Positions 2,330-63,800 are shown, counted from the stretch's first letter. The stretch: DNA of 64,000 nucleotides from Yuukianura sp. NJ FZ-2021 (GCA_046563655.1 CM102286.1:6696001-6760000); one strand, 5' to 3'. Notes: a model not told the origin generated them from the letters alone. Program-made: numbers and translations.

Positions 2330-4094
2330 ATGGCAACAATGAAACCTTTGTTCATCGTGTTGGTTTCGTATATTGGAGTTGGTACTCTACAAGCGAGTCG
2401 TTTGCACGTAAAACCGGCAGAAATATTACTTACGCATGCTAACACAACTAGTATAGCCAATATTGATGGTAAAAATAATTTTTTATTAATGTTTATAATA
2501 CATTGAACATCGTCTGTTTTACTTTTGAGCAAATTCCATTTGGAATTTCGAAATTTTAAAGTATGAAAGTTTATTAAATCTTTCAGTAAAACAAATTCAG
2601 CCTGGAACGAACGATTGGAGATCTGGTATCTTCCCTTTCAAGTTCTTTTCAACGGCAACAAATTCACCGGCAAGTGAACAAACTCAACGCAAGAAATATG
2701 CAACAACATATCCAACAACTCCACTAGCGACATATCCAACAACAACATATCCAACAACGACACGTCCAACAACAACATATCCAACAACGACACGTGGAAC
2801 AATGACATATCCAACAACGACGCGTCGAACAACGACATATCCAACAACGACACGTGGAACAACGACATATCCAACAACGACACGTGGAACAACAACATAT
2901 CCAACAACGACGCGTGGAACAACAACATATCCAACAACGACACGTGGAACAACGTCATATCCAACAACGACGCGTGGAACAACGTCATATCCAACAACGA
3001 CACGTGGAACAACGACATATCCAACAACATATCCAACAACGACACGTGGAACAACAACATATCCAACAACGACACGTGGAACAACGACATATCCAACAAC
3101 GACACGTCCAACAACAACATATCCAACAACGACATATCCAACAACGACGCGTGGAACAACGACATATCCAACAACAACATATCCAACAACGACACGTCCA
3201 ACAACAACATATCCAACAACGACACGTGGAACAACGACATATCCAACAACATATCCAACAACGACACGTGGAACAACAACATATCCAACAACGACACGTG
3301 GAACAACGACATATCCAACAACGACACGTGGAACAACGACATATCCAACAACGACACGTCCAACAACAACATATCCAACAACGACACGTGGAACAACGAC
3401 ATATCCAACAACGACGCGTGGAACAACGACATATCCAACAACGACGCGTGGAACAACGACATATCCAACAACAACATATCCAACAACGACACGTACAACA
3501 ACAACATATCCAACAACGACACGTGGAACGACATATCCAACAACATATCCAACAACGACACGTGGAACAACAACATATCCAACAACGACACGTGGAACAA
3601 CGACATATCCAACAACGACACGTGGAACAACGACATATCCAACAACGACACGTCCAACAACAACATATCCAACAACGACACGTCTAACAACAACATATCC
3701 AACAACAACATATCCAACAACCACACGTGGAACAACGACATATCCAACAACGACGCGTCCAACAACAACATATCCAACAACGACACGTGGAACAACGACA
3801 TATCCAACAACTCCACAAACGACACATCCAACAACATATTCAACAACTCCAGGACACACATATACAACAACATATCCAACAACTCCAGGACCGATATATC
3901 CAACCACTGATGAACCTACGCCTGAGCCTACGTATTCTCCAACAAGTCCTACAGAAACTACTCCAGCGGCTCCAGGTAACCCTTTCCCAGACATCAGCGT
4001 CAACTATATCCTCTTCAACAACAGCTCCATCAGCAACAGCTCCATAAACGTCAACAACAACAACACAATTTACGTCTACAATGGCGCGGGTTGA
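2330..4094 (+). CDS. Secreted Thr/Pro-rich mucin- or glue-like tandem-repeat protein, two exons (2330..2468, 2587..4094), 548 aa
   Basis: Exon 1 encodes a signal-peptide-like start (MATMKPLFIVLVSYIGVGTLQA-SRL) and ends at a phase-1 donor G|GTAAAA. The AT-rich intron ends TTTCAG at 2586. Splicing joins exon 1 in frame with the YPTTTRGTTT repeat ORF, which ends with a non-repetitive tail (..NNNNTIYVYNGAG*). AATAAA follows at 4230. Confidence 0.85.
2703..3810 (+). repeat. Coding minisatellite: 30-bp unit (TATCCAACAACGACACGTGGAACAACGACA) with interspersed 12/15-bp short units
   Basis: Tandem array visible directly in the sequence; all unit-length variants are multiples of 3. Confidence 0.95.
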
Positions 4095-5081: not shown

Positions 5082-8000
5082 AGGCATATATATATATATT
5101 GATTGTTAACTGGAACGTATGCAACTTTCAGTATGAGTGTGAAGTTAAACGAAAAGAACGAAACGATAATTATAGAACCGTGTAGAGACAGCACCCTGGA
5201 AAAACATTTTCCAAGTTCGTAAGTAGTTGGAATATCATTGGAAATATTAATGCGACTTTCAAAGTACAAAGTGTGGTTCAGTAAAGCCATTGAAAATTTT
5301 TTGGTTCGTAAAGAAAGTTGATGACGCTCATGTGAGACATAACAAGTTATCTTAACGTGACCTCAGGGAGCGGTTCGAACACCATTTTCCAAACGAAGAC
5401 GAGAAAATAGGAGTTTTCTGATACCCTTTCTTCAGTGTTGGTTGCTGAACCTCTTCTATCTTTGGGAATTGGAATAATTGTAGAGGGCATTAGGGAAGGA
5501 CCTAGTGTACTTTGTCTCGTGGCTGAAATAGAGTAACATATGTAAAGCCGTGTACTATTCTGAAGGAATCAAGTAGACTATGCCCAACAACCAATGTTCA
5601 AAGAAAGTAATTGATTAAAATCATAATATATTTTTAACTGAAAAAGATATACAACTATTTCTAAATAGTTCCAGAGAGCGAAATGATAAATGATAAACTG
5701 TTACAACTCCATTGCCAAAATCTTACAACAATACTTCGGGTTGAAGGGGTAACATAACCATTTCGTATTCTGCATATTTTTACGGTTGAATAAAACTAAA
5801 CTGGGAATTGGGAGAAGGGATAGTAAATTTGAGCGGACTGTGATTCGGGTGCAAGGAAATGAAAACTTTCACCACCACTTATGGAAAGCAGAAACGAAAA
5901 AGAATTATGAGAAGATCTGAAACCTCTTTCCAATTCTGAAAGCCCCTTTCCGTTCTGCATAGTTTCAGATTCTTAATGGCAAACTCCGCACTCACTTTCT
6001 TGGAAAGTGGTGGAGTCTCTCTGTTGAGTAGAAAAGAGTTCCGGAAGAAGGGAAGAATCCCCAACTTTCATTCTTTATTGCGAAAAGACAGAATTATGAG
6101 GCATGACTTTGATTTCCGCCTTTCCCTTTAGTACTATTGAATTTTAAAATATCAAATAATGTATAAAATATGTAATGGCTTCTCATGGAGCCTTACATAA
6201 TAACCGGTCTGGAGTCGCTGGAATCCGCCGTCGCATCCGAAATATAAATTGATTCCTGACAAGATTTCGAATTCGTTTCTATTGATGCCCGATTTTGCGA
6301 AACCACTTTCCTTGAAGGAGCTTTAGTGAAAAACGACAGCTAAATAGTCAACTTGTACGATATTGGGGTATTTCGCTTAAGCGAAGTAAAAGTAGAAAGT
6401 GCTTTAAACTTTAAGTGCGAAAATCATCAACATACTACATAGACTAAGAGTCTTTGGCTGTTATACTTTCAAAGAAAGGTATCGCTAACAGTGTTTTTAG
6501 TAAGTTGAGAAAGCATTTATAACTGGAAGTTAAGTATTAAAAGCCACTTTATACACCGACCATGTTGGTCTATCTGTGTGCCAGCGGCAATTATTTGCGA
6601 AACGGTAAAACTTTCTCCCGATCCGGTTTAACCTCTGAACATATATTGACATTGGGATATTCACTGTTGCATATCTTCCCGGTTGGTCAGCTACGTCCGA
6701 GGCACTTGTTTCTCAGCCGTTTCAGTATTGTTATAATACTCAAGTAGTGTATTATTATTTTGGCTCGCCACGGTGCACGATGGTTTGTCCCGTGGTTCGA
6801 AGTCAAAATTAACATCTCTCGCTACTAATTTACATCCCGGGTTTCAACCATGTTGATCTTACTTAGACGGCTCATAGAGAAAACATTGTAGAGCATGTTT
6901 TTAGTCATTTTTTCAAAGCACTAATTAGTTTGAAAACAAACCCCAAGGTTAATGACAACGAGGAGCTGTGTTACATCATGACAACGAATCCAAAATGCTT
7001 GGATCAGAAGAGGTGGAATGTCATCTCCGGCACCTGTCTCCCTCTCGAAACGAAGAAAGTGTCATATCGGTTTCTTCTACTTTTGCATCGTCGTAGGAAA
7101 ATACTTTACATTAATGTTTGTTGGAAATGGGGTTCTATGTTCCATCAGCCATTCCTTTTCCAATACTGTAGTCAGTCGGTAGCAGTTGGCAGGAAAAGAG
7201 CCACGCTTGCACTTTATATTTGCTACAACATGTCCCTACTTTGGAAACTCCACCCCAAAACTTATTATCCGCTTCATATGTTTTGGCCTGAAATACTCAA
7301 ACTTTTATTCCTTTCTGTATTTTCGTCTGGCAGAACTTATGATTATTTACCAATAGTTGTTCACAGTTGGATTCCAGGCAAAAGTTTACTCATCAACCCA
7401 AAACCATGGCAGATCCCACGCACTCACTGCATCGCACTGTTAATTGGTTAACTTTCACCTTCCAGGTTTGGTCTCAACGTATAGTGAAAACATTTCTTAG
7501 TCAAAGTTTTTTTGTTTGTATTTGTTTTATCACAGGCCTGTTTTGCTGCTTACGTGCCACACAAAAAGTTCAGAGTTGAGATTAAGGAAAAATGAACTTT
7601 TTGCAAGCCATTTCGCAAGAACAAAACTATTTCGCAGAAAAATGGAGCGGGGTGGATGGAAGTGAAGTGGGTAAATAGTTTGGAGTGTTTGTGTCCTGGA
7701 GTGTTGAATGAAGTCGTAGTTGTGATGATGGATGTTGGGAGTAAATTAAGAGTGGTTGCATAATTCATGAGGAAGAATGGTTGATGGAGTGAGATTACCA
7801 TAAGATGAAGATGCTTTCCTTCCCTTTTGCTCAACAGTAAAGCAGCGGAAGCGGAAGCAGGAAAAAGAGCCCATTAGAAAGGAAAGTCTCACCTGAGAAA
7901 GCAGATTTTGTTTTCCTTTCTCCATGGGAAAGACGAAAGCTTCCCTTTAACATTAGTTTACAGTAGAAACTTTGTACTTAAGCTTCAATGGCCTCCATTT

Positions 8001-9754
8001 CTCATCTCAGGAAACATAACCTAAGACGTCATCCCAAACTCCGTATCCATGACATGTTAACACGCTGGAATTTGTACTTTTCTAAAGTCTGACACTAAGC
8101 TTGCATGTTACAACATATTTGAGTCGAGAAAAACAATGACCTCATTTTCCTCGGCAATTTTCACGCTCAATGGGGTTCTGTAAATCACTGAAAAGTGTTT
8201 AGCTGAACATTTCAAATGCAAAAATTTTGCGTTTTTGTTTAAATTCTTTCAAAGAAATACATTTCTAATATTGTTGCCAAGTTGAAAGCCATTAGGAAGG
8301 AAATAGTGATGAGGCGGGAGTGGCAATCTTAAACCTTATCTCCATTAAATGATAAACAGTAGTTAATAAAACAGGCCACGAAGTCATAACTCATTTGACG
8401 CCTCTTTCCTACTTTCCCACCCAATAAATCCTGAGATAGAGAGAAAGGATGGAACCATTAAGAACTTTCAGATGAAACTGAATAATTCAAAGACAGCAAA
8501 CAAAGGGTATTAGAGGAAGATGGAATTAAACAATGCATATGCCTCGCAGGTCAAACGCTTTTATTTATCTTGTGTCTTAGGTGGTCGTTACAACTTTCTA
8601 GAATTAACTTTTTCCCACCTTGTAATCTTCCAAAAACTCTTTAAATTAATGTTCGTGCAAACAAAAGAGGGGAGAGTAAATCAACTATTATGAATCTTAC
8701 GGGGTTAAGTCGTGAGGAATTTCCCATTTTCTGCTCAAAATCCACATTCTTAACGGTTTTTTTTACCAATACAAGTTACTACAAAATTTTTGGTGAAGCA
8801 AGCTTAGGGTCATAACCGGCTACTCCCTTCTAGCAGAGTAAAAGCAGGTCGAAATTTAATTCGAACGTAAGTTACGTAAAGTATGCAGGTCAAGTTCAGC
8901 AGAAGCAACTACCAAAATTGACAATTTGTTTGCAATTACATTCATGAATACAATTCTATTCACTACAAACCCATAGTACGCGGTAATAAAAACGGCAGTA
9001 AAGGATCCATGTACTGTTGGTACGGAGCATGAGGAATGAAGCAAAGAATGAATTAATCAGCGAACCGACAAAGTGAAGATGGTTTTTCGCAGACTAAGGT
9101 GTACTTGAGTCACCGGCGACAACGTGAGAAGTTGTAAGCCGTTGCTCGGGGTTAGACTCATCTCAATTACGTAAGTGCCCTTTCTTCGGAGATACAATTG
9201 TTTGCGATTTTGTTGGTTCTGAGTACATCGTTCTGGAAAAAAGCCTACCGTGATGGAAGCCATTAGAATTTAGAGAGGTGAAGGAATAATATTTTTCCTG
9301 TTACACAAAGGGTTGAGTGCATGTCTTCGGGTCGTAAGACGCCGCAACATATTTTTTAAGTTAAGCAGACGTAAGAAGTTCAACCAAACAAAAACTTGTT
9401 TCATTTCGAGCAGACTATTCTGCACAACGTTTTTTTTGCTGCGTAAAAGCTTGTATCAGGTGACCATGTATCTTTCATGCGGAGTTTCCCAGAATTCGTA
9501 ATAAACGCCCTTAAACTTGTTTGCGTTGACAGCAAACTCGTCTAGTATAAAAAATGGTATAAATCTAGTTTGATTGGTAACACAACACCGGTTGATGTAA
9601 GACAAAGAATTACAAACTATTGACTTTTAAGTGCATAAATTTGTCACTGTTGACAGGTACCCTTTGTTTTCTGTTACAAGATGCAAACATAACGCAAAGA
9701 AGATAAGATTCTTCAACATAGGAAAAAGTTATTATAAAACATTTATTATAATAT

Positions 9755-9759
9755 TATAG
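9755..9759 (+). repeat. Target-site duplication, left copy (TATAG); right copy at 16016..16020
   Basis: Identical 5-mer immediately outside both termini. It reads as 6-bp TTATAG if the terminal T at 16015 is assigned to the TSD. Confidence 0.85.
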
Positions 9760-10148
9760 AGTAGGGTGTACGATAGGAATTTTGCATACTTTGCCGCGGG
9801 GGCTAGTCGGGCGCAATATTGGGGAGGGGAAAACCCCTCAAAAAATACATAATGACAAAATCTCAACATCTAAAATGTCAAAAATGTCAACAACAAAAAG
9901 GCAGACATCAAAAAGGTCGACAACAAAAAAGTCAAAACACAAGTATTGGAATTTTTCATAGAAAATTCGAAAAGTTCTTTTCAAAACAACTTGTCACAAG
10001 AAAAAACGTTTTTTGAAAATATTTTAAAATAGCATTCAACCATTGTTTCGATGGCTACTTAAACAGCGAGCTCTGAATCTAGAAATCGTCAGTTCTGAAC
10101 TTAGTAGTGGAAATTACAACATTCCTACTCCATAGCCATTCTCAAAAG

Positions 10149-10853
10149 ATGGAAGATGTAAAACATGAAATTGCTCTCCGAGTAAGAGGCATTCCATGGG
10201 AAAGACGTCCAGAAAAGTGTCCTGGATTTTATATAACTCCAATTTGTTCGCAAAACTCGTCAGCGTTTAAAACTCACGAAGAGTACAAAGCGCTTCCAGT
10301 TACTCGGGTTTGCGATCACAGTCGCTTCAACTATAGTGGTGAATACGACTACATGATTGAAAAACTGTTTGGAGATGGAGTATTTAAATCAGCTGATTTG
10401 CAAGAAATTTTGGACGAAGTTTCACGGCTCCGAAAATTTAAAAAGTATTATTGCAAATACATGCAATGTTCTGGATTCATTTTACGAAAGGGGAAGAAAG
10501 CAACAGCCGACCCACATTCCCTAGTTCCTGGTTATGACTTTTCCAGAAGCAAAGAAGCTCCTTATACCTTACCATGCAACGGCTGGAACTGTGATACAAC
10601 GGCGTTTGCAAAGTACATTATCATTGCGGCTTTAGCCCGTGGATATTTGGCTCCAACGTATTCTCTTCGAAATAATCCACTCATCATCCTGGAAAAAGTG
10701 GGGTGGACGGCAATGCTGAATGTAACTCCTCATGAAGCACATAAAGAATTTATTCAAAATTCAGAAAACTGGCTTGCAAAACAATGGGAGTTTCTGTGGA
10801 GCCCTGACGTTCTCTACACTGCGCGTCAACAACGAATATCTCATTTTGCTTGA
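10149..10853 (+). CDS. Uncharacterised 234-aa protein encoded inside the left TIR
   Basis: Intact ORF; first ATG at 10149 (MEDVKHEIAL..; the ORF track starts at an upstream GTG). An Inr-like TCAGTT lies at 10089..10094. Several Cys clusters (YCKYMQC, CNGWNC). No family recognised. Confidence 0.7.
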   Translation: MEDVKHEIALRVRGIPWERRPEKCPGFYITPICSQNSSAFKTHEEYKALPVTRVCDHSRFNYSGEYDYMIEKLFGDGVFKSADLQEILDEVSRLRKFKKYYCKYMQCSGFILRKGKKATADPHSLVPGYDFSRSKEAPYTLPCNGWNCDTTAFAKYIIIAALARGYLAPTYSLRNNPLIILEKVGWTAMLNVTPHEAHKEFIQNSENWLAKQWEFLWSPDVLYTARQQRISHFA

Positions 10854-11070
10854 AGTTTATTTCGAGAATGTCGTTTTGAAGTCGATGAACTTTTAACCCT
10901 TTTTCTATAATTTGGAAAAGGCTCGCTTCTGTTGGAAAAGGTATCCCCCAATATTTTAAAAGATGGCTACAGAGTACAAAGTATTCAAGCTGAAACGCTT
11001 GAACACCTCATGGCTACAGCGTTGGATTTATCCAGCCCAGTCCTGGGGAAGCCTTTGGGCCGTGTGAGCC

Positions 11071-11118
11071 AGCCCTTGGACGCCAGCCCTTGGACGCCAG
11101 CCCTTGGACGCCAGCCCT
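11071..11118 (+). repeat. 14-bp GC-rich tandem repeat (AGCCCTTGGACGCC); 3 full units here, 4 in the right TIR (14643..14704)
   Basis: Units counted directly in both TIRs. Confidence 0.9.
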
Positions 11119-11381
11119 CAATTCGCATGAATTTTTAACGTAATATAACAACTTCACTGCATAATACAATGGCCTCTCTGCATATTACCCTGGCCCAGTT
11201 GTATAATACCACAACGTCATTACATAATGCCGAGTTTATTCTGTACAACATAGCGAGTTTGCGAGAGTAAAGTCTAGACTTTGTCAATGTCACGGGAACT
11301 TACTCCGTGAGTACACCTTGCAGAGTACTTCCTCGGGATTATTTCCCGCCGGTAACCTTCCTTCGAGAGTCAGATCATCGT

Positions 11382-11516
11382 TAATACCATGGTCACATTG
11401 TATAATACCATGGTCACATTGTATAATACCATGGTCACGTTGTATAATACCATGGTCACGTTGTATAATGCCATGGTCACGTTGTATAATACAATAACCT
11501 CACTGCATAATACAAC
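11382..11516 (+). repeat. 21-bp tandem array (TAATACCATGGTCACRTTGTA x5 plus degenerate units); mirror copy at 14182..14316
   Basis: Exact 21-bp period. A related degenerate 21-bp array lies at 11141..11245. Confidence 0.92.
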
Positions 11517-11597
11517 ATTTTTTGTCAATTTTACATCCAACCACCACCACCACCACCACACACCACCACAACTCCAACGTGCCCACCCATGCAAAAG

Positions 11598-11633
11598 TAT
11601 AAATAGCAACGTTGACTTGCTCATCTCTCAGTT
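11598..11633 (+). promoter_or_regulatory. TATA + Initiator core promoter at the inner end of the left TIR, upstream of the ATPase gene
   Basis: TATAAATA at 11598 and TCAGTT at 11628 (A+1 = 11630, 32 nt from the first T of TATA), matching arthropod TATA/Inr spacing. First downstream ATG is 11686. Confidence 0.75.
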
Positions 11634-11685
11634 TCGTTTCAGACGTTGAGCTGTGAAGACGTGAAGATTCTGTGGACTATACATC

Positions 11686-12500
11686 ATGGATACCAGTACA
11701 GCGTGCGATATTTGCTGCAGACAATTCTCACGAAGGGACGCATTGAAACGACACAAGTTAACTTGTCATAGTAGCGTCGCAGTATCGAAAATGCTTCAGG
11801 TATGCATGAATCAGCGGGAAAAATCTACTATGTTTCGACATGTACACTCTGGGAAAAAGTTTGACCCGCATTTGGTTGCACCGTTTACTATGTGCATCAG
11901 TGGAATGACTCAGAGTGGCAAAAGCACCCTTGTGAAGCAAATACTTCTACGACGAAACGAAATTATCGAGACTAATATTGACAAGCCCTTGGAACGTATC
12001 ATGTATTGTTACACTGAGTTCCAGCCTACGCTGTTTGGAGAATTGAAGACCAAGATTCCAACTATACAATTTCATCGTGGACTTCCTGAAAAATGGCATG
12101 ACGGAACCGACAAGCCGTCAGTCGTCGTCCTTGACGATTTGATGCATGAAGCAGGCAAAAACGGAGAAGTTGGAGCTGCGTTCACAAGGACTTCGCATCA
12201 CCGCAACGTATCACTCATCATTCTTGTGCAAAACTTTTTCACAGGAATATGAAAGAAATCACGTCAAACTGTCACTACATTGCTCTAATGAAGAATCCGC
12301 GAGACTCTCAATTTGTAGCTTGTCTTGGACGTCAAATGAATGGAGGAAAGAAGAATACAACCATGGAAGAAGCCTACAAGGAATGCATGTTAAAGCAATA
12401 TGGATATCTATTCATCGATTTAACTCAACGACAAAATGATTTGTTTCGCATTAGAGATAATATATTTCCTGAAAATTGTCAAATCTATGCTAATGAATGA
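11686..12500 (+). CDS. Polinton/Maverick-type (A32/FtsK-HerA-like) DNA packaging ATPase with N-terminal C2H2 zinc finger; one frameshift at about 12235..12240 (about 271 aa restored)
   Basis: Zinc finger CDICCRQFSRRDALKRHKLTCH; Walker A PFTMCISGMTQSGKST; Walker B VVVLDD; SHHRNVSLIILVQNFF, then in the -1 frame HRNMKEITSNCHYIALMKNPRD..LGRQM..YGYLFIDL..FRIRDNIFP. These are motifs characteristic of Polinton ATPases. Confidence 0.88.
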
Positions 12501-12503
12501 ATG

Positions 12504-12549
12504 AATAAACACATTACACGATAAAAGTTCTATTTTCAAGTTTTTTATT
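12504..12549. terminator. Bidirectional polyadenylation region between the convergent core genes
   Basis: AATAAA on + at 12504..12509 and on - at 12544..12549, within a 97-bp intergenic gap. Confidence 0.6.
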
Positions 12550-12597
12550 TTGAAAATTCGGAATCTAACGAATATACAGTCATAAAGGTGTATAATT

Positions 12598-13998
12598 CTA
12601 CGAAATTACGCTAGTGAGAAACTCTCCAAGTATTGGTAATGCGGCAGCGAGAAGAGCTGGCAGGAACCCACCGTGCTGTATAAGTAGTTTTTTCTTGTCT
12701 TCAATCGATCCTTTAGCTTCTGCAACACGTTTAATCTTATATCGATGCGGTCTCAAGATATTTTTGACGGTGGCCTCAATAGGAATGTTGCCCTGGATTA
12801 CGTCCTGAACACATTTGTGTAACCCAAGAATTTGACCAGGAGACGCTGTGGAGAGAAGTGTCTCGCGTATAATAGGGGAGTGTTGGTTCATCTGGTGGAG
12901 AAATTGATAATGTCGTATGGGACCTGGTGATGGTTTAGCTCCTCCAGTTTGTCTATACTCTTCTTCCCCTTCTTCATCCGTTTCGTCTTCCTCGTTTTCC
13001 TCCTCTTCTTCTACTTCTTCTTCTACTTCTTCTTCCCCTTCTTCATCCCCCTCGTCTTCCTCGTCATCATCTTCTTCTTCTTCATTTTCTACATCACTTT
13101 CCACGTGCGGGCGATTTCTAGAAAGCTTTTTGGGTTCATCTCGACCGAGCAAGCCTCTGTGGCTGATCGGAAGCAGATATTTTGGAATGCCTGTCTGAAT
13201 CATAAAGTCTACGATGACAGGAATCATTTGTCTTGTCAACTTATATCTTCCATCCGCAAGTTTTCGTATTCCCTCTTCGAACTCGCTCCTGGGTATGTAG
13301 GCATCACCCAGACTAACGCTATTGTTCGCAAAGGTTGCTCCATTTGCTACAAAAAATTGTGCTAGCTGTTTTCCAACAGCTGAAAACTGGTCCAGAGTAA
13401 ACGGTGGAGTTGTCGGTGCTGCTGTCGGCGTTTCATCTTTCGCTATTTGCGATTCTTTTTTAAATCTCTTGGAAAATGGCATCTCGAGCGCGTCATTCGG
13501 ATTTACCACAGTATTTGACCAACCGTTCGCTGGATTTTCTGACCAGGTCGTAATTCGGTCATATCTGTCTTCGGTTTTTCTGGCTGACTTTTCCGGTCCA
13601 CCATCCCATCCGGTAAAGTGACTTGTAGCCATATCATTCAACCGCCTATCGTTTACAACGTTCACATTGACGTAGCCTTCCCTTTGCTTCCGTTGATTTT
13701 CCCAGTTCTGGCGTAATTCCGTTTGCATCATATGATTCTGAAGTTCGATTGGAATGTTGTTCCCAGAATCTCGCGAATTACGCTCATGAAGCTCCATTGG
13801 TCCACGGCTCTGAGACATGTTCATTGTATGTTGCTGTAAGTATTGTACGGGTTTAGTATCAAGCAAAAAACCATCATGGATTTGCTTTTCTCCAAAATAA
13901 CTTTTGCAAGGGCTGTTTTGCTGAGACTCATATGTCTCAAGCTGATCCAGTAGACTGTTGTAGTCGTCTTGGTGAACAAGAATGTATTTTTGCGCCAT
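12598..13998 (-). CDS. 466-aa protein with a long Asp/Glu tract and a C-terminal Polinton-like small domain ending in an adenovirus pX-like GGFLPALL motif
   Basis: Intact ORF from ATG 13998 (MAQKYILVHQDD..), the first ATG after the TIR promoter. Acidic run of about 40 aa. C-terminus ..CVQDVIQGNIPI..LRPHRYKIKRVA..KKKLLIQHGGFLPALLAAALPIL. Confidence 0.8.
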   Translation of the reverse strand: MAQKYILVHQDDYNSLLDQLETYESQQNSPCKSYFGEKQIHDGFLLDTKPVQYLQQHTMNMSQSRGPMELHERNSRDSGNNIPIELQNHMMQTELRQNWENQRKQREGYVNVNVVNDRRLNDMATSHFTGWDGGPEKSARKTEDRYDRITTWSENPANGWSNTVVNPNDALEMPFSKRFKKESQIAKDETPTAAPTTPPFTLDQFSAVGKQLAQFFVANGATFANNSVSLGDAYIPRSEFEEGIRKLADGRYKLTRQMIPVIVDFMIQTGIPKYLLPISHRGLLGRDEPKKLSRNRPHVESDVENEEEEDDDEEDEGDEEGEEEVEEEVEEEEENEEDETDEEGEEEYRQTGGAKPSPGPIRHYQFLHQMNQHSPIIRETLLSTASPGQILGLHKCVQDVIQGNIPIEATVKNILRPHRYKIKRVAEAKGSIEDKKKLLIQHGGFLPALLAAALPILGEFLTSVIS

Positions 13999-14064
13999 GA
14001 CTGTTAGCCTAACCGCTCCAGATGGTAAAATCTTCACGTCTTCACAGCTCAACGTCTGAAACGA

Positions 14065-14100
14065 AACTGAGAGATGAGCAAGTCAACGTTGCTATTTATA
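14065..14100 (-). promoter_or_regulatory. TATA + Initiator core promoter at the inner end of the right TIR, upstream of the 466-aa gene
   Basis: Mirror of 11598..11633: TATTTATA at 14093..14100 and AACTGA at 14065..14070 on the + strand. Confidence 0.75.
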
Positions 14101-14921
14101 CTCTTGCATGGGTGGGCACGTTGGAGTTGTGGTGGTGTGTGGTGGTGGTGGTGGTGGTTGGATGTAAAATTGACAAAAAATGTTGTATTATGCAGTGAGG
14201 TTATTGTATTATACAACGTGACCATGGCATTATACAACGTGACCATGGTATTATACAACGTGACCATGGTATTATACAATGTGACCATGGTATTATACAA
14301 TGTGACCATGGTATTAACGATGATCTGACTCTCGAAGGAAGGTTACCGGCGGGAAATAATCCCGAGGAAGTACTCTGCAAGGTGTACTCACGGAGTAAGT
14401 TCCCGTGACATTGACAAAGTCTAGACTTTACTCTCGCAAACTCGCTATGTTGTACAGAATAAACTCGGCATTATGTAATGACGTTGTGGTATTATACAAC
14501 TGGGCCAGGGTAATATGCAGAGAGGCCATTGTATTATGCAGAGAGGCCATTGTATTATGCAGAGAGGCCATTGTATTATGTAGAGATGCCATTGTATTAT
14601 GCAGTGAAGTTGTTATATTACGTTAAAAATTCATGCGAATTGAGGGCTGGCGTCCGAGGGCTGGCGTCCAAGGGCTGGCGTCCAAGGGCTGGCGTCCAAG
14701 GGCTGGCTCACACGGCCCAAAGGCTTCCCCAGGACTGGGCTGGATAAATCCAACGCTGTAGCCATGAGGTGTTCAAGCGTTTCAGCTTGAATACTTTGTA
14801 CTCTGTAGCCATCTTTTAAAATATTGTGGGATACGTTTTTCAACAGAAACGATCCTTTCCCAAATTATAGAAAAAGGGTTAAAAGTTCATCGACTTCAAA
14901 ACGACATTCTCGAAATAAACT

Positions 14922-15626
14922 TCAAGCAAAATGAGATATTCGTTGTTGACGCGCAATGTAGAGAACGTCAGGGCTCCACAGAAACTCCCATTGTTTTGCA
15001 AGCCAGTTTTCTGAATTTTGAATAAATTCTTTATGTGCTTCATGAGGAGTTACATTCAGCATTGCCGTCCACCCCACTTTTTCCAGGATGATGAGTGGAT
15101 TATTTCGAAGAGAATACGTTGGAGCCAAATATCCACGGGCTAAAGCCGCAATGATAATGTACTTTGCAAACGCCGTTGTATCACAGTTCCAGCCGTTGCA
15201 TGGTAAGGTATAAGGAGCTTCTTTGCTTCTGGAAAAGTCATAACCAGGAACTAGGGAATGTGGGTCGGCTGTTGCTTTCTTCCCCTTTCGTAAAATGAAT
15301 CCAGAACATTGCATGTATTTGCAATAATACTTTTTAAATTTTCGGAGCCGTGAAACTTCGTCCAAAATTTCTTGCAAATCAGCTGATTTAAATACTCCAT
15401 CTCCAAACAGTTTTTCAATCATGTAGTCGTATTCACCACTATAGTTGAAGCGACTGTGATCGCAAACCCGAGTAACTGGAAGCGCTTTGTACTCTTCGTG
15501 AGTTTTAAACGCTGACGAGTTTTGCGAACAAATTGGAGTTATATAAAATCCAGGACACTTTTCTGGACGTCTTTCCCATGGAATGCCTCTTACTCGGAGA
15601 GCAATTTCATGTTTTACATCTTCCAT
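14922..15626 (-). CDS. Second copy of the uncharacterised 234-aa TIR protein
   Basis: Protein identical to 10149..10853 except for one T/I difference near the C-terminus. Confidence 0.7.
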   Translation of the reverse strand: MEDVKHEIALRVRGIPWERRPEKCPGFYITPICSQNSSAFKTHEEYKALPVTRVCDHSRFNYSGEYDYMIEKLFGDGVFKSADLQEILDEVSRLRKFKKYYCKYMQCSGFILRKGKKATADPHSLVPGYDFSRSKEAPYTLPCNGWNCDTTAFAKYIIIAALARGYLAPTYSLRNNPLIILEKVGWTAMLNVTPHEAHKEFIQNSENWLAKQWEFLWSPDVLYIARQQRISHFA

Positions 15627-18600
15627 CTTTTGAGAATGGCTATGGAGTAGGAATGTTGTAATTTCCACTACTAAGTTCAGAACTGACGATTTCTAGATTC
15701 AGAGCTCGCTGTTTAAGTAGCCATCGAAACAATGGTTGAATGCTATTTTAAAATATTTTCAAAAAACGTTTTTTCTTGTGACAAGTTGTTTTGAAAAGAA
15801 CTTTTCGAATTTTCTATGAAAAATTCCAATACTTGTGTTTTGACTTTTTTGTTGTCGACCTTTTTGATGTCTGCCTTTTTGTTGTTGACATTTTTGACAT
15901 TTTAGATGTTGAGATTTTGTCATTATGTATTTTTTGAGGGGTTTTCCCCTCCCCAATATTGCGCCCGACTAGCCCCCGCGGCAAAGTATGCAAAATTCCT
16001 ATCGTACACCCTACTTATAGTTATTACATATTTTTATTGGAAAGCTTTGCACCAAAGTTTGACGTAAAATTTTAATTACTGTTTTTGACGCAGCATTTGA
16101 CGAAAGTATTTCGAGTATGCTCATTAGTTTATGCACCCTCAGAATCCTCATTCAAAAGTTATGTCAACGCAATTACGTTTGCTGCACTCACCTCATTCGA
16201 TACCTGCTATTCACAGGACAAAATCCTGGTTAGGTGAAAGTTGAAAAAGACTTTTGCTTTCCGTTGTGATGAGAGTGCTAAGGGAAGAAAACGGAATGAA
16301 ATGTCATTACCAGGATTCTATCATGCGATTTCTCCCCAAGGATTCTGCATTCTAAGTCAACGGCCGGAATGGAATCCAAAGGAAAAGAAAATAAAAAGTC
16401 GACGGTAGTGGCAGCCCACGAAGCCCTTGAATTTCATCTTTTCATCTTCAAGGTACAAAAGAAATTAGAGAAGCGTTCAGGAGGCAAAACCTTAAAAGTC
16501 ATTGGTTTTTCTAGACCAATTTCCATTTCCTTTCGCATTTTCACATAACCCCTCATTTCAATTAACTATTTACATTGCGTCCAGCTGAGATGCTCTTGAA
16601 TCTCATTTCAGTATGTACTTAAGACAAGCGATAGGTCTAATGAAAAATGAATTCAAATGGTTGTTAATCAATTTCTGCAAAACAGACACTTCTTAATTGA
16701 ATTCCAAAATTAATGGCTATTCCCTCTCACTTTGAAGAAGGCTTTTCACAATGGGAGTTCGTATTGAGAGGAAAATGCTTTTGAGTAGAAAATATAATAT
16801 AGTTTTTCTTTTTATACAAAAATGAAGATGTCATGCCAAAAATAGATTTGGAGGAAGTTTTACCTTGACATGGGGTAAGAAAAGGAAGATCGTTTTTTCG
16901 TGTAACAACGCAATATACAGACTCGGATTCCAATAAAAAGGAAAAAGAAGATGCCAGACCATTGTACAAAGCTTTTACGGAGGAACGGGTTTTGATACGT
17001 TCCTGGTCTTAAAAGACGGATATCACATTTTATACTTTCGCTTTTTTCAAATATTGCCAACGTCCGATGTCCGAGATGATTCTTCCATATTCTTTTTTTC
17101 TTCAAAAGTTTAGCTTTGGCCATAAGGCGATTCTTTCCCTCCCATGCAATTCTTCTTCGTCATCTCCTTAAGCTGAAGGGGATCTTCGAAAAAAAAACTG
17201 GTTCTAGAGATTTGGTGAAAGCAGGCGTCGCAAGAGAGAAAGTCCTCCAAGTCGTCTCCCCTAATCTTCTTCTGTGTATATCATTAGAAATGATAGGACT
17301 CAAGATACTTATCGTCCTTCTATTAGCATTCAGATGAACTCAATCAGTCTCACTATCCTACTTCTTCGAATGAGGCCGAATAGAGACCTTAGGGGACTTT
17401 TTCTCCGAAAAGCTCCTACGGTAATAAAATCCGAAATTTTAGGATTCATTATCTCCTTCAAGCTCTTACTTTGTTCGCGATAAGCTTCCAAATGGGAATG
17501 ACTCGCTGGGATCCAAATAAGTTTTCCTGGAAATCTTGGTGTAACTCTTTAAGCTCACCAGAATCAAGTTAGACTCGATTTGACCTACGCATTTGAGCCA
17601 AACAACCTTGTTCCAACATGCAACGGTAAAATGTAGATTGGCTCCATCACTAGTACCTCATCTTTGCTCGGAAATTATGTCACTGGTATACTTCTACATG
17701 TAGAGCAGCACGCTTGTCACTTTACGAATTCAAAATCGCTGTAATTGTAATAAGACGAAAGCTTCTGTTCAGAGCTTAAGTTGGGAGCAGCGTTGTAAGA
17801 CCTTAGACAATTAAAGGGAACAAGCACTGATTGCACAAATTTGAATATAAATGAAGCCGTTTTTTGCTTGGTTTGGTATTACGACAATGCTGAGGGAGAG
17901 CACTGGAAACATACCTATCTTCTTCCTGTGTACAAATTTCCTGGGTTCCAGAGTCCGGAATTGAGGCCAAGAAACATTTTTGCACTAACCTAATTAACTT
18001 TTTCCAAAGTGGAGAAGTTAACTAAATTAGGTTTCCAGAGCGAGGTGTAGGAATGAATATTAAACTAGTGACACGTAGTAGAAGTCTTTTGGTCTTAGTT
18101 TTTAAGCATGAGGTTTCAGTATCAATTGAGTTTCATTAGTATTTTTTGTCTGGTTAAGAAAAAATTGAAGCCCTTCAGTTTCCAATTTGACTTTCTTTAA
18201 ATTCATCTAGGTCGGTGTTTACTTAACGCGCATATCTAAAGCATCCACTAAAATAGCGTTACAAAAATCCTTCTGCAGAAATAAAAAACAAGAAAAATTC
18301 TGCTAACCAAGCATTGACCTATCATGTCATTTTCATCTTGTGGTCATGTAGTAACCAACAAATTTGAGTTCCGGTTGTGGAGGTTTTCTCTTTCTGGATA
18401 TTGCAATCCCGGTTCTCGTGATACGGGTATTAGGTGCATGTGCGTTTCCGTAATGCAAATAGAAACGAAATTATTCATCCAAAAAGCGTTTTCGTTACAA
18501 GTTTTTTGCAAAAGCATATTCTTGTTCCTGAGAATGAAAGAATTTAAATGTTCCGTTTTGCGTCGCCTGCCTTTCCACGATAGCAGTGGAAAGCCATTTA

Positions 18601-35636: not shown

Positions 35637-36235
35637 CAAAGGGTATGGGCCAAAACCCTATCAAAACGGTACCCGGTGCGATTCGAATGAAATTTTAACC
35701 AGTTGTTCATGTCGTTATTAGTATCATATTTGCAAATTTTCAGCCCCCCAGAAACGATAGGTCAAGGGTTATGGGGGGTCAAAGGTCACTATGTCATCCT
35801 ATGACAACCGGTGGCATGTAGCATATCATTGGAACGGGCTTGACCTCCTGATTCAAAAAATGTATATATGTCAATATTTATGACGTAAGACAACGAAATT
35901 ATGGCGCCAAACGTCCAAATACGTGAGATTTGGAATCGTGTGGGACTAGCCATTTCGACGTTTTGCGCCATAACTTCGTTGTCTTACGTCATAAATATTG
36001 ACATATATACATTTTTTGAATCAGGAGGTCAAGCCCGTTCCAATGATATGCTACATGCCACCGGTTGTCATAGGATGACATAGTGACCTTTGACCCCCCA
36101 TAACCCTTGACCTATCGTTTCTGGGGGGCTGAAAATTTGCAAATATGATACTAATAACGACATGAACAACTGGTTAAAATTTCATTCGAATCGCACCGGG
36201 TACCGTTTTGATAGGGTTTTGGCCCATACCCTTTG
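35637..36235. repeat. 599-bp foldback (284-bp arms, 31-bp loop), probable MITE/foldback element
   Basis: 35637..35920 is the reverse complement of 35952..36235. I saw three mismatches, all next to the loop. Confidence 0.93.
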
Positions 36236-58932: not shown

Positions 58933-60637
58933 GTAAGTTCATCCTGCTTGCTTTTTAAATCCAATTTTAGAAAAACAAAAAAATTGAATTGCTTCTACAT
59001 GCAACAGTTGTTGTTTGTTGGACCAACTTTGTAACAATCAAATATTTAGAACAAAACTTTTTGAAAATGGACTTTCTTCTCAGCTTTCACTGAATAAGTA
59101 AAACTGTCCAAACTGGGCTAGAGTGCTCATGTATCAAATATGATCTTAAAAAGTTTCAGTCGATCAATATCGCATCACGGATTTGAGAAATTGTGTGACC
59201 TGCTTAAAATTTCTCATTTCAGTTTTACAATAAAATTCCATTTGATGCATTTGAGAAATCAATTTGTCTATTGCTCATGAATAAATGAATCAGAAACCAT
59301 TTCTCAGTCTTATCGACAGCGTGTGAACCTCGGGAGAGGCAATTTCGTTTCTTCTGAGAAAGTGGGACGCTGGAAAGTAGACGTTTATGGGGAAAGCGGT
59401 GTGAAGACTTTGTATTATTTTTCGGAAGGCTTGGGGATCCCGCCCATTGGACTCACTGCTACACAGAAGGCGACATTAGCATATCGCGGGATTGGATGAG
59501 ATGTGGGTGACTAGGTGGGCGGATGAGTAGCCCCAAGTCTTCCATTCCTTCATCTCGCTACGACATTCCGCTACTTCTAGCCTTTTCTGGCCTACACTAC
59601 TCCACGGAAGCACTAACTTTCCCAGTAGTCTGAACTATTACAATAAAAAGTAGACAGGAGAATAGGAATTGTACGTTCGACGCTGAATAAAATCGTTGAA
59701 TATTTCCTTACATTTCAATTCTCCTTCTCTCCGCACACAATTTGACTTTAAAATCAAAACGCTAAAGTGCCTGAGAGGAAAAGATCTGTATGGCTTCATC
59801 TCCAATTGCAGCGGATAAGGTCCCGTATGAGCGGTTTAGTTAAAAGGTTCCATCTGAATTAAAAGGATAGAAGAGACAGGGACAGAGAACATGCTAAAAA
59901 TGTAAACTAAACTTTTATGTGAAAAGTAGACCCGCTTTTACTTTCACCACCTTCGGTTAGGAGAGAGGAGTGAGGAGCATAATAAAAATGTCACCTAAAA
60001 GGATGTAAGTCTCTCATCTAAAAAGCACTTTCTCCTAATATAGATGATGACGCTAGTAAAGTTGAAACTTCTATTTCATTACAATTTAGAGCTGTCGACA
60101 GGGGGAAAGTCTTTTTATTCGTTTCTACACAGGAGGACTTTCTCCTGCCGATCCTTATGTAGATTAAACTTTGACCAATTTATTCTAACTCAAGAAAAGT
60201 TTCTGTTCTACACTTTAATTCTTTGATGGAAGGGAAGTACTATGAAGTTGTGTGTGGACTCCAGGGGAAAAGAACGCTTTTCTAATAGTCAAGTTATAAA
60301 TTTTGAAGGCAACACCGGTTTGGCTCTCGGCTTATTCATGCAATTTTAAAATGCATTTCATGAAAAACCTCTGCCACACGACCACAAACTGGCTTTCCCT
60401 TCTAATGCAAAGGGAAAGGAAATGCTTGGAGTTTACTTTGGTAAATGCATACACAAAATGGAATTTTCAAAACAAACATCTTGTTGTAAAGTTAACAAGG
60501 TTGCCAGTCTCGAAAGTTGTTTAAGAGTACTACAAACATGGCAATATTTTGCTAATAAACTTCTTTTTGCAATCAATAGTGAATTCTAACGAAGTGTGAA
60601 ATACATTTCATATTTTCTAACTTTTGCTTGTTTCCAG

Positions 60638-60844
60638 GTCGTCCACCTCCAAAAGTGACGTGGTGGCGTGGTGGAGGTCTTCTGGATGATTCCTACAAGG
60701 TGATAAATTTTGAAGGAGCAGTTCAGAACAAACTGGAAGTTTTGGGTCTGACACGAACTGACCTCCATGCTGTTTTCACATGTCAAGCGAGTAACAACAA
60801 CATGAGCGATCCCGTCATCACTTCTGTTCAAGTGGAAATGTATT
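60638..60844 (+). CDS. Sidestep-family Ig protein exon (second half of Ig domain 2); gene continues beyond the window
   Basis: Acceptor TTTCCAG, donor T|GTAAGT; encodes GRPPPKVTWWRGGGLLDDSY..NKLEVLGLTRTDLHAVFTCQASNNNMSDPVITSVQVEMY. Confidence 0.93.
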
Positions 60845-63800
60845 GTAAGTCCCTTTCTAACTAAAAAAACTCTAGCCTTATATTACTTGTACAACAAAAA
60901 TGCAAATAGTGAAAGTCCTACGGAAATTCATGGAGTAGTAGAGAAATGGAAGAGAAAGTCTGGGTTGGAACTTTGTGTGGTGTACAAAGTTCTTAATGTG
61001 TTTGTTTTCTCAGACAGAAAACTGGGAAGTGGATCACTTCCCAAGGGAATTCGCTGGCGCTAATTCTATTCATATTTCATTCAATTTCCAATTTCACAAG
61101 GACCAACAGTAACCGAGTGCCTAGCCTGCTCCTTGTCTTTTAATAACTTGAAACTTTGGAGAGGCATGGCGGGAGAGTTTGAAATAGTTTGAAAGTAAAT
61201 GGAGGCGGGATAGAATTATCATGGTGTCAACGGGTGCTGCTGTTTGAGAGAGAAAGGAGAGAAATGCAAGCAATCTCAGCGACTTTCTCCTGTGTAGTTT
61301 TTCCAAATGTGGATTTGGATGGGAGTTGTATAGTGGTTTCGGAATAGTTTTAAAATTGTTTATGGCTCCAACCAAGAGAGAGGGTTTATGTGAAACGTGA
61401 TGGAGTTTGGAAGTAAAATATTTCCTTGATAGAAGCATAAATGGATGTTATAAATGTCAGTGGAAAGACCTACTGTCCAATTTCTCATATCGCACATTGT
61501 CTCACCCTACATCAATTCCCCACTGGAAGACAATCTGTCATATACGCCCACATTTGTCAAACGCTTTTGTTTCTATTTCCATCAAAGGCAACGCCATTTC
61601 CATGTCCATAAAGTGTTTCTCCGACTTTAGTTACACAGGCATATGTATGAAATATGTCAAGCATATTTAATTCTAACGACAAAAAGTAGGGTGAAAGTAA
61701 AATGCAAAGAAGCTTATGCATTTCGTGCCTCTGGTGCTGAGGTTGTACGTTACATGTAATTCTGGTAAAAGGAAATTAGGGTTTCATTAAAAATCCTAAT
61801 CCGCCTTGAAAGGGAGGAAAAAAGCTGAAAGAGAAAGTCTTCTTCATATTTCCGTCTCCGCAACGCTGCAAACGGGCGAGTATACGAGAGACTCAATGTT
61901 GGCGGAGGTGAATAAATGGAAGGATTAAGTAGAGACGTAGGCAGAGCAGAGGTCATGGAGGTTCATGAGCCAAGGGGAAAGAAATGAAGATGATGAAAGC
62001 GGAAACCCGCCTTGTTTGAAAAGGAAGCAGAAATCGATACGTGCATCCTATCATAACTGATCCAAGCATGTTCCTGGACAGTCACATCAAAATACACGAC
62101 CAGTATTTTGTTAGTCTTTCAAAAAATGAACTTTTCAAAAAAAAATCTTAGGCAAAAATTCATTCACGATTGCACAAGCCGGATATCAATGACAAAGAAG
62201 TTTTTAAATGACTAATCCTGCGCCTGGGAGCCTGCTTTTCAATTGTCAAAAATTTTAAACGTCTAAACCTTTCTTTTTGGGATTATGGATTAGCGTTGTT
62301 TTTATGCCGGCTAGGATAATTTAAGCAAAATTAATTCTGTGTTAAAGCAGCAATTAAGTTGGTTCGGAAAGAGGCGCATTAATTTAAATGTCGACGATGA
62401 TGCAAGGTTAGGTTACGGCCATTTGCCTTGTATTTCTTTGTTCACAGGAAGTCGAAGCCTCGTGCATGAGAAAATTGGACATTAAAATCTAGCAGCAGGG
62501 AGCCCCCTATTTCTTGGGAATCCTTATATCTAGTCACAGCCAAAACATCTCAATTTTGAATTCTCTGCGTTGAAACTGCTGAAGAGGTCTGCAAATTAAA
62601 TCCGCCAAGCCCACAACACCTTTAGTTCGTTTGAAGAAAATGGGGAGCGGCAGGAAACGCACACTTCCAAAGCAAACTAAGAACAAACACAAATTCCTTC
62701 CGAATTTTCACGCCTAGCACATGGAATCTCCCGCTTTCACGCCTGGATCCATAAGTATTTCAAATAGTTTCTTTGAACGATGAGTTTCATTTAACCAAGA
62801 CTCAAACCAACGTTTAACCTCTGGCATTTCACCTGTTATTCTTGTTAGTGAATTGTGAATTTTCAAGTACTTTAAAATTCTTGATTGTTAAGCTTAACAA
62901 TGACTTGCATTTTACTTTTCCAAGGTTAGGGAGTGGAATTAATTGCAATAATTGACAGTGACAAGGACAAATCCATTGAAGAATGTGTTAGGGCAGAGGT
63001 CCATTTGGATTGGCTTTTGTCCTTGTTGGTTTTGGAGAAAGCACATAAAATGCGATTGCCTAAAACCAGCCTGTAAATTGCTTTCCAGAAGCACGTAAAA
63101 ACTGAAAGAAAACAAAGAGCAGGTTTCCATTCTGCTTTGACGCTTTTCTCTCTCGTCATGCCAAACAATAGTTACCATAATTTTATGAAAGCAAAATACC
63201 CTTCCAACGCACGTTGTCCCTCCCAGCCTCGTTACAGTTCCCTCTAAAGTCTTTGCACGCCGAGGTCATCAAAATCAGTAATTTAAGAAAAATACTTACG
63301 CAGTGATGCTGTCATCGCGCTAAAGTGGACGCTTCTCACAAAGTCCTGGACAAAAAGTTTTGAAATGTTGAAAATTCACATTTGCAATCGAAATTCCATT
63401 CTGAAATTCAAAAACTCGCGTCTGTCTGTTTTAGGCGTTTTAGCTCTGAGTTAATTAGTATTTTGAGAATTCGCATTCAAAATGTGAAGCTTTCCGTTGT
63501 ATTATTACACTGTTTGCTCGTCGGTAAAAATTCTGGTGAGCTAATATTTTTTTTGGTTCTTTGTAAAAAAAAAAATTGTAACAAGATTTACAAAGTGCTA
63601 CAAACGTTCGTAAAATCGTGCTGCTTCCTGTTATTACCGTCGTGAAATAGAAGATGATTAGGTAAAGTTTTGTTACATGCGAAGAAAAAAGCTGAATCCT
63701 TCCAAAAACTCGGTTGAATTCAGAAAGAGGTCACTGGAGAAAAAAACTTCCATCGCGGAACAAAGCCCGTTGTTTAATGTAACGATGAAATAAGGTCGAA

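Follow-up and report, generated by a model that had tools for sequence, protein, structure and literature searches.

A stretch of 64,000 nt from the genome assembly of Yuukianura sp. NJ FZ-2021 (GCA_046563655.1, CM102286.1:6696001-6760000), referred to below as the window, contains at positions 9760–16015 an integrated element of 6,256 bp with AG...CT ends and the sequence TATAG on either side. We consider it likely that this element is a non-autonomous member of the Polinton/Maverick (adintovirus-like) group in an animal genome, and that it recently moved as a 6.3-kb unit and was mobilised in trans. In the read contigs, it is a polymorphic insertion of a repeated unit that exists in more than one copy, for which we claim no number. 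The assignment to the Polintons fits the ends, the target duplication, the predicted A32-type ATPase, and the pX-like tail of a second putative gene product.

A repeat search identified two inverted pairs, 9760–11119 with 14656–16015 (1360 nt, 99%) and 11141–11669 with 14029–14557 (529 nt, 99%), which a global alignment of the arms joined into one continuous terminal inverted repeat (TIR), with a left arm of 1,910 nt (9760–11669) and a right arm of 1,987 nt (14029–16015). Together, the arms account for 3,897 of the 6,256 nt (62%). They are mismatched at only eight positions, six of which cluster at 10916–10948, and the right arm is longer by one 14-nt unit and three 21-nt units. The element begins with AGTAGGGTGTACG and finishes with CGTACACCCTACT, and the TATAG at 9755–9759 and 16016–16020 represents a target-site duplication (TSD) of which 5 bp are certain; a 6-bp duplication (TTATAG) applies only if the T at 16015 is target-derived. 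An earlier description of this DNA (the initial annotation) had reported AG...CT ends, a TSD, and TIRs making up about 62% of the element, and the repeat search, the arm alignment, and the flanking TATAG bear this out. Between the arms lies a core of 2,359 nt (11670–14028), 2,216 nt of which (94%) are inside two genes, encoding the ATPase and a 466-aa open reading frame (ORF). The arms cease to be identical 16 nt upstream of the ATPase ATG and 30 nt upstream of the ATG of the 466-aa ORF; the stop codons of the two genes are 97 nt apart, and this gap has an AATAAA on each strand, in agreement with the annotated picture of a core that is about 94% coding, in which both genes start within about 30 bp of the TIR edge and share a terminator region. 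No further pieces of the element were found elsewhere in the 64-kb window, and no Rfam families or tRNAs were detected in 9000–17000.

The mobility of the unit was examined in four of the five sequencing runs containing the stretch (two studies), which were compared over 8000–18000 as assembled contigs only; X1–X3 derive from one sample of organism A and X4 from organism B. The contigs break at repeats, and their summed depth is not a copy number. The initial annotation had held that the element was really integrated and had proposed looking for an empty site with a single TATAG. This site was present in X2 (two contigs, depth 134.5) and X4 (one contig, depth 6.1), where 9750 is joined to 16015 through two intervening letters, so that one TATAG remains and leads directly into the right flank. 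In addition, all four runs contained another element-free allele, of greater divergence, with a joint from 9711 to 16039, and the 14,559-nt X1 contig that carries this joint is the only listed cover of the flanks in X1. Meanwhile, the 3′–3′ junction of the two core genes was bridged, with 3–7 differences, by contigs of X1 (11744–12845), X2 (11989–12762), and X4 (11669–12825), the depths of which were 206, 2148, and 113.5 against flank depths of 92, approximately 170–230, and approximately 7, respectively. A contig of X4 (12836–14235) spanned the boundary between the right arm and the core, and contigs of X1 and X2 ended at 14058, 30 nt inside the arm, as expected at the edge of a repeat. Overall, the internal junctions of the element occurred at 2–16 times the flank depth in runs of two organisms. 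Because the site is empty yet the internal junctions are present, these contigs derive from other copies with the same arrangement in the two organisms, and the existence of such copies elsewhere indicates that the structure is neither a misassembly nor a deletion that followed insertion at this locus. The empty site and the recurrence of the arrangement at high depth thus uphold the earlier view that the element is not random deletion debris, as far as this locus is concerned.

Loose ends of contigs at 9793/15982, 10943, and 14833 show that the outermost 33 nt, the outer arm (to approximately 10942), and the inner arm (from approximately 10943) also occur in other contexts, and the cluster of arm mismatches is located where the loose end at 10943 falls. 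At 14833, where the outer arm is joined to other interiors, the loose ends hint at a partner that shares the termini. Such a heterogeneous family fits a population of related elements, possibly with a complete partner among them. A common subterminal variant was also observed, in which 75 nt are swapped for 27 others (9833–9909 and 15866–15942; depth 1620 in X2 and 464 in X1), so that at least two sub-families of ends coexist.

The ATPase gene is read as 11686–12252 and then as 12249–12500, after a frame change inside the homopolymer run 12235–12239. The former segment encodes a C2H2-type finger followed by Walker A (GMTQSGKS) and Walker B (VVVLDD) motifs. In P0001 and P0002, proteins encoded on environmental contigs with 64% and 73% identity, respectively, the frame continues uninterrupted across the break site; furthermore, all four runs have contigs in which the homopolymer is of another length there, and other copies keep the ATPase in one frame. 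Since the relatives and the read contigs are unbroken, the frame break is a trait of this copy of the element, or an assembly error, and not of the family. Metagenome contigs provided three short loci (L001–L003) from 108 candidate stretches. Pox_A32 exceeded its Pfam cut-off (22.8 bits) in P0001 (24.5 bits), L002 (28.7 bits), and L003 (30.9 bits), whereas the window piece reached 19.4 bits, falling below the cut-off because it is cut by the frame change. By way of these close relatives, the gene product is classified as a predicted A32-like (FtsK/HerA) packaging ATPase. The zinc-finger ATPase of the initial annotation therefore stands in its identity (A32 type, finger, and Walker motifs) but not as a single open frame. 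When the ATPase profile was compared with PDB sequences, nothing was found below E 0.1. No inverted ends occurred within the contigs of the three metagenome loci. Nonsynonymous divergence (dN) of the window genes from L001–L003 was 0.15–0.31 for the ATPase, with synonymous sites (dS) saturated, and dN/dS between L002 and L003 was 0.35. Viral contigs scanned with P0001, the ATPase alignment (A2), the 20-nt terminus, and the pX-like alignment (A5) gave no matches.

The 466-aa protein is composed of three parts. Residues 1 to approximately 295, termed the X region, are homologous to the C-terminal halves of the fused proteins P0001 and P0002, in which the ATPase and X form one open frame, as seen in two independent contigs. 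In the model of the X domain (predicted local distance difference test [pLDDT] 52), a folded core was predicted only at residues ~200–285 (nt 13144–13399), and it resembled no solved structure. A fold search with the X-domain model returned a best Z-score of 4.1 and no capsid-like fold; the adenovirus capsid chains in that search (Z 3.1–3.5) were not above noise and were rejected as a match. An N-terminal PLA2 or gasdermin-C-like domain had no Pfam match, in a region for which the model is mostly of low confidence and the fold search did not exceed Z 4.1. The second part is an acidic linker (approximately nt 12959–13102). At position 13064, most read contigs have a 3-nt length difference in its (TCT)n-coded run, so copies differ in linker length without a change of frame. 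With the whole 466-aa ORF as a protein query, 0 matches were found among 8,000 candidates, the search having been swamped by the acidic run.

The third part, the C-terminal 122 aa (nt 12601–12966), matched the free-standing proteins P0003 and P0004 (111 and 134 aa; E 5.7e-11 and 3.6e-10), which share the KKKLLIQHGGFLPALL tail with the pX-like module of the element. Adeno_PX was detected below threshold in P0003 (E 0.038) and P0004 (E 0.0082), and the corresponding part of the window gave no match. In the Atlas, the tail had as neighbours 114–130-aa proteins assigned to Eukaryota and Preplasmiviricota (score 0.93); among named clusters, Adeno_PX 20% was the nearest (score 0.80). The tail motif had no match in one supplement of PMC8502044. 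According to a portion of that article (Starrett et al. 2021, PMC8502044), the accessory virion genes of adintoviruses (PLA2X, GasderminX) typically end in a pX-like domain, and an excerpt of PMC7998265 describes the adenovirus pre-Mu/pX as being cut by the viral protease at (M/L)XGG↓X. In the element, GG directly before the hydrophobic tail is suggestive of a protease site, at which cleavage would be putative and the P4 residue is off consensus. As a separate observation, L002 contains a convergent pair like that of the element with a different partner gene: its fused ATPase–X gene is convergent with a 353-aa ORF (2586–3647, minus strand) that has no family match (best Pfam E 0.15).

Each arm is ordered, from the outside in, as a 33-nt terminus, 15-nt repeats, the arm ORF, 14-nt repeats, two blocks of 21-nt phased repeats, an (ACC)n run, the TATAAATA box, and a common leader of approximately 70 nt. 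Because the TATA box and leader sit inside the arms, both core genes come under one duplicated promoter; in other words, a single predicted TATA promoter with its leader serves both. In L002 and L003, the ATPase gene is likewise preceded by 21-nt tandem repeats and simple repeats, the sequence of which differs from that of the element. The inner arm is thus the upstream sequence that natively belongs to the ATPase gene, duplicated on the opposite side. A scan of the 3′ region for bacterial promoters and terminators was set aside, as the host is eukaryotic.

The two copies of the 234-aa arm ORF (10149–10853 on the plus strand and 14922–15626 on the minus strand) differ by one residue. The protein belongs to no Pfam family, and its structural model (pLDDT 64) had no PDB fold match at E ≤ 0.001. 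The initial annotation regarded it as an ORFan, which proved incorrect: a full HMMER pass over 1.84 billion representatives returned nine distantly related proteins at E ≤ 0.001 (best 1e-7, none ≤ 1e-10). These relatives share two CxGF...P[YF]T..C.H..C modules and an LWSP motif, and the arm protein of the window is without one conserved Cys or His in each module. Archaeal Nre appeared among its Atlas neighbours (score 0.88) and was judged a chance resemblance.

In agreement with the initial annotation, according to which all Polinton genes except the ATPase are absent, no polymerase (pPolB), rve integrase, adenain-type protease, or double or single jelly-roll capsid gene was found in the element or in the scanned window. 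The Pfam scan covered 64 of the 88 stop-to-stop ORFs of at least 85 aa in the window; the other 24 comprised 17 inside the element, the four main ORFs of which were scanned separately, and seven overlapping frames of a satellite array. Outside the element, Pfam matched a single exon-sized ORF, at 60583–60861 (plus strand), whose immunoglobulin domain (Ig_3, E 2.8e-6) fell slightly short of the cut-off; it suggests that the host is an animal.

Taken as a dependent member of the Polinton group, the element keeps the cis parts, namely the AG...CT termini, the subterminal repeats, and the long arms, as well as three genes, those of the zinc-finger ATPase, of the X-type accessory protein with its pX-like tail, and of the small Cys/His protein encoded in each arm. 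A complete relative would supply the missing activities in trans: its retroviral-type integrase, recognising the same ends, would integrate the unit, and its protein-primed polymerase would probably copy it. The element may have originated when a complete element lost its interior, or one side, and regenerated the lost end from the other by template switching or panhandle repair, as in linear protein-primed replicons. Rebuilding of the missing end in this way would account for arms that reach exactly to the leaders of the two genes, and for the upstream region of the ATPase gene driving both. The ATPase and the X protein may act together, because the relatives encode both as one polypeptide.

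Several observations weigh against this interpretation. The relatives carry a colinear ATPase–X fusion, whereas the two genes are convergent in the element; this requires at least one further rearrangement, and a single simple deletion does not account for the history. Only 5 bp of the target duplication are certain, as against the 6 bp typical of Polintons. In the window copy, the ATPase frame is interrupted, so that its expression there is not required. The ratio of element to flank depth varies among the three runs of one sample (approximately 2, 10, and 3–8 times), and, given the loose ends, relatives that are larger or constructed in another way may contribute part of the depth. Among the read contigs, which break at repeats, neither a second complete 6.3-kb copy with another target duplication nor a helper element was seen. 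With these points taken into account, the streamlined dependent element proposed in the initial annotation retains the support of the empty site, the other copies, the intact ATPase frames, the shared promoter, and the lack of replication and capsid genes, although a dependent Polinton is not new in kind.

A more far-reaching explanation, which we regard as rather unlikely, is that the element is a true satellite of a Polinton or adintovirus, the helper polymerase copying the 6.3-kb unit from its ends and the product being packaged in helper capsids. By analogy, its own zinc-finger ATPase would recognise the 21-bp phased repeats in both arms, and the helper protease would mature a pX-type core or membrane-active protein. 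The genes that were kept are precisely of the packaging and virion-accessory kind, and the ATPase frame is intact in other copies. Moreover, the interval from the end to the ATPase gene contains 21-nt phased repeats in the element and also in L002 and L003, with differing sequences, and the adenovirus packaging domain, as described in part of PMC5033970, likewise consists of left-end repeats with 21-bp spacing that are bound by the IVa2 ATPase. The variation in element-to-flank depth among runs of one sample could be caused by free copies. However, the depth figures are not copy numbers, the connection between the repeats and the zinc finger is an analogy, and young copies retain open frames even without selection; furthermore, no helper is known, and nothing in the contigs of the DNA runs points to free or encapsidated DNA. 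The full proposition, that this is the first animal satellite of a Polinton-class virus, copied and integrated by a helper and steering its own encapsidation through the ATPase, the 21-bp repeats, and a pX-type protein, is accordingly put forward as a doubtful one.

The remaining explanations are much weaker than either the dependent mobile element that we favour or its encapsidated form. A one-off defective genome or local deletion, in which a full Polinton inserted, lost its interior, and never moved as a 6.3-kb unit, would accommodate the broken ATPase of the window copy and the fact that a second complete copy was not directly seen. It is very improbable, because the runs with the empty site hold the 3′–3′ junction and the arm/core boundary at high depth and with at least 99% identity, in two organisms. 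Still less credible is a self-sufficient element of an unfamiliar kind, in which the Cys/His protein of the arm would be a new recombinase or end-binding protein: this protein does belong to a small conserved family with two Cys/His modules and lacks a known fold, but it has only 234 aa, no recognised catalytic motif, and one conserved ligand missing from each module in the window copy, and both the 5–6-bp duplication and the AG...CT ends are in keeping with a retroviral-type integrase, an enzyme that the element lacks. Finally, an assembly artefact producing a false inverted duplication can practically be dismissed: long, near-identical inverted repeats are a known type of assembly error, and the initial annotation had raised misassembly as a concern, but at the arm edges (14058 in X1 and X2; 11669 in X4) independent contigs from four runs and two studies terminate or branch, one contig crosses 14029, the target duplication flanks the ends, and the empty site matches exactly.

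Kapitonov and Jurka are said to have given 5′-AG...CT-3′ termini with long TIRs as the rule for Polintons in 2006. Like the Polintons/Mavericks and adintoviruses, the element has AG...CT ends, long gene-bearing arms, a short target duplication, an A32-type ATPase, and a putative pX-like C-terminal accessory domain. Unlike them, it has no pPolB, integrase, adenain-type protease, or capsid genes, it measures 6.3 kb as opposed to approximately 15–25 kb, its ATPase bears an N-terminal C2H2 finger, and only 5 bp of its duplication are certain. A 6-bp TSD and long TIRs are given as typical of Polintons in a passage of PMC3014272, and gene-bearing TIRs of approximately 2 kb are described for butterfly Polintons in part of a preprint (10.1101/2025.02.07.637071). 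Non-autonomous Polintons have been named in Repbase, including Polinton-1N1_DR and Polinton-N1A_NV (excerpts of PMC9341505 and PMC11296320), and Polintons with TIRs but without polB still insert in Pieris (same part of preprint 10.1101/2025.02.07.637071). As far as these partial accounts go, the present element resembles all of them in being a dependent derivative that still inserts. By the same descriptions, it is set apart by its gene content, since Polinton-N1A_NV has a capsid gene and the Pieris elements lack only polB, whereas this element has the ATPase and one accessory core gene. The dependent aspect is not new in kind, because Repbase families and polB-less Polintons have already been described. 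Our literature search, which excluded most subscription papers and Repbase itself, found no multi-copy mini-Polinton of such gene content and no Polinton satellite.

Phage satellites, such as the phage-inducible chromosomal islands (PICI), are likewise small and integrated, lack capsid genes, and carry their own packaging-specificity function. They differ in being bacterial, in using terminase-based packaging, and in that their helper dependence is proven, whereas that of the present element is proposed. Transpovirons are linear DNAs of approximately 7 kb with long inverted ends that ride with a larger virus system, in this case the giant viruses of amoebae; their genes are different, and to our knowledge they have no A32-type ATPase or pX-like protein. 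Incomplete or defective adenovirus genomes offer a further likeness, in that protein-primed linear genomes yield short one-end molecules and incomplete particles carry left-end DNA (as stated in part of PMC5033970). Those genomes are unintegrated by-products of infection, whereas the element is an integrated unit, flanked by a target duplication, that is found repeatedly in the genome.

Polintons/Mavericks are regarded as viruses, yet little is known of their particles and life cycle in animals. The spread of a unit that has mainly an ATPase, a virion-type accessory protein, and its ends marks the functions that may act in cis or that may have to match the packaged genome, and makes the element a small, tractable substrate for work on the recognition, copying, and packaging of Polintons. 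If it is encapsidated, the satellite–helper lifestyle known from phages, giant viruses, and adenovirus/adeno-associated virus (AAV) would be extended to the Polinton-class viruses of animals; if it is merely a dependent transposon, it represents an unusually compact case of a little-described category.

Table 1. Features of the element and its target site, in window coordinates
Feature	Position	Strand	Basis or remark
Left TSD copy (TATAG)	9755..9759		Sequence; single copy at the empty site in read contigs
Left TIR, 1,910 nt, starts AGTAGGGTGTACG	9760..11669	+	Repeat search, arm alignment
Subterminal 15-nt tandem repeats, 3.7 units	9879..9933		Mirror 15842-15896
Arm ORF, 234 aa	10149..10853	+	Second copy 14922-15626 (-)
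14-nt tandem repeats, 3.6 units	11068..11118		Right arm 14643-14707, 4.6 units
21-nt phased tandem repeats, two blocks (11137-11245, 11382-11513)	11137..11513		Mirrors 14206-14316, 14503-14620
Putative TATA box TATAAATA within the arm, ~88 nt upstream of the ATPase ATG	11598..11605	+	Motif only; mirror 14093-14100 for the 466-aa ORF
C2H2 zinc finger and predicted A32/FtsK-HerA-type packaging ATPase	11686..12500	+	Frame change in homopolymer run 12235-12239
Shared 3′ region	12504..12549		AATAAA at 12504 (+) and 12544-12549 (-)
466-aa acidic ORF, three parts	12598..13998	-	X region, acidic linker, pX-like module
Right TIR, 1,987 nt, ends CGTACACCCTACT	14029..16015	-	Repeat search, arm alignment
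Right TSD copy (TATAG)	16016..16020		Sequence, read contigs

Two further repeat structures were observed in the window outside the element. A near-perfect foldback at 35637–36235, resembling a miniature inverted-repeat transposable element (MITE) or a hairpin, has 284-nt arms that are 99% complementary and are separated by a 31-nt spacer; it contains no ORF and has no obvious target duplication in the flanks that were read. A tandem array of 1.1 kb at 2728–3811 is composed of approximately 73 copies of the 15-nt unit CGACATATCCAACAA, with higher-order periods of 60 and 90; it is open in several frames and strongly skewed in composition (GC skew −0.46 and AT skew +0.56 at 3001–4000).

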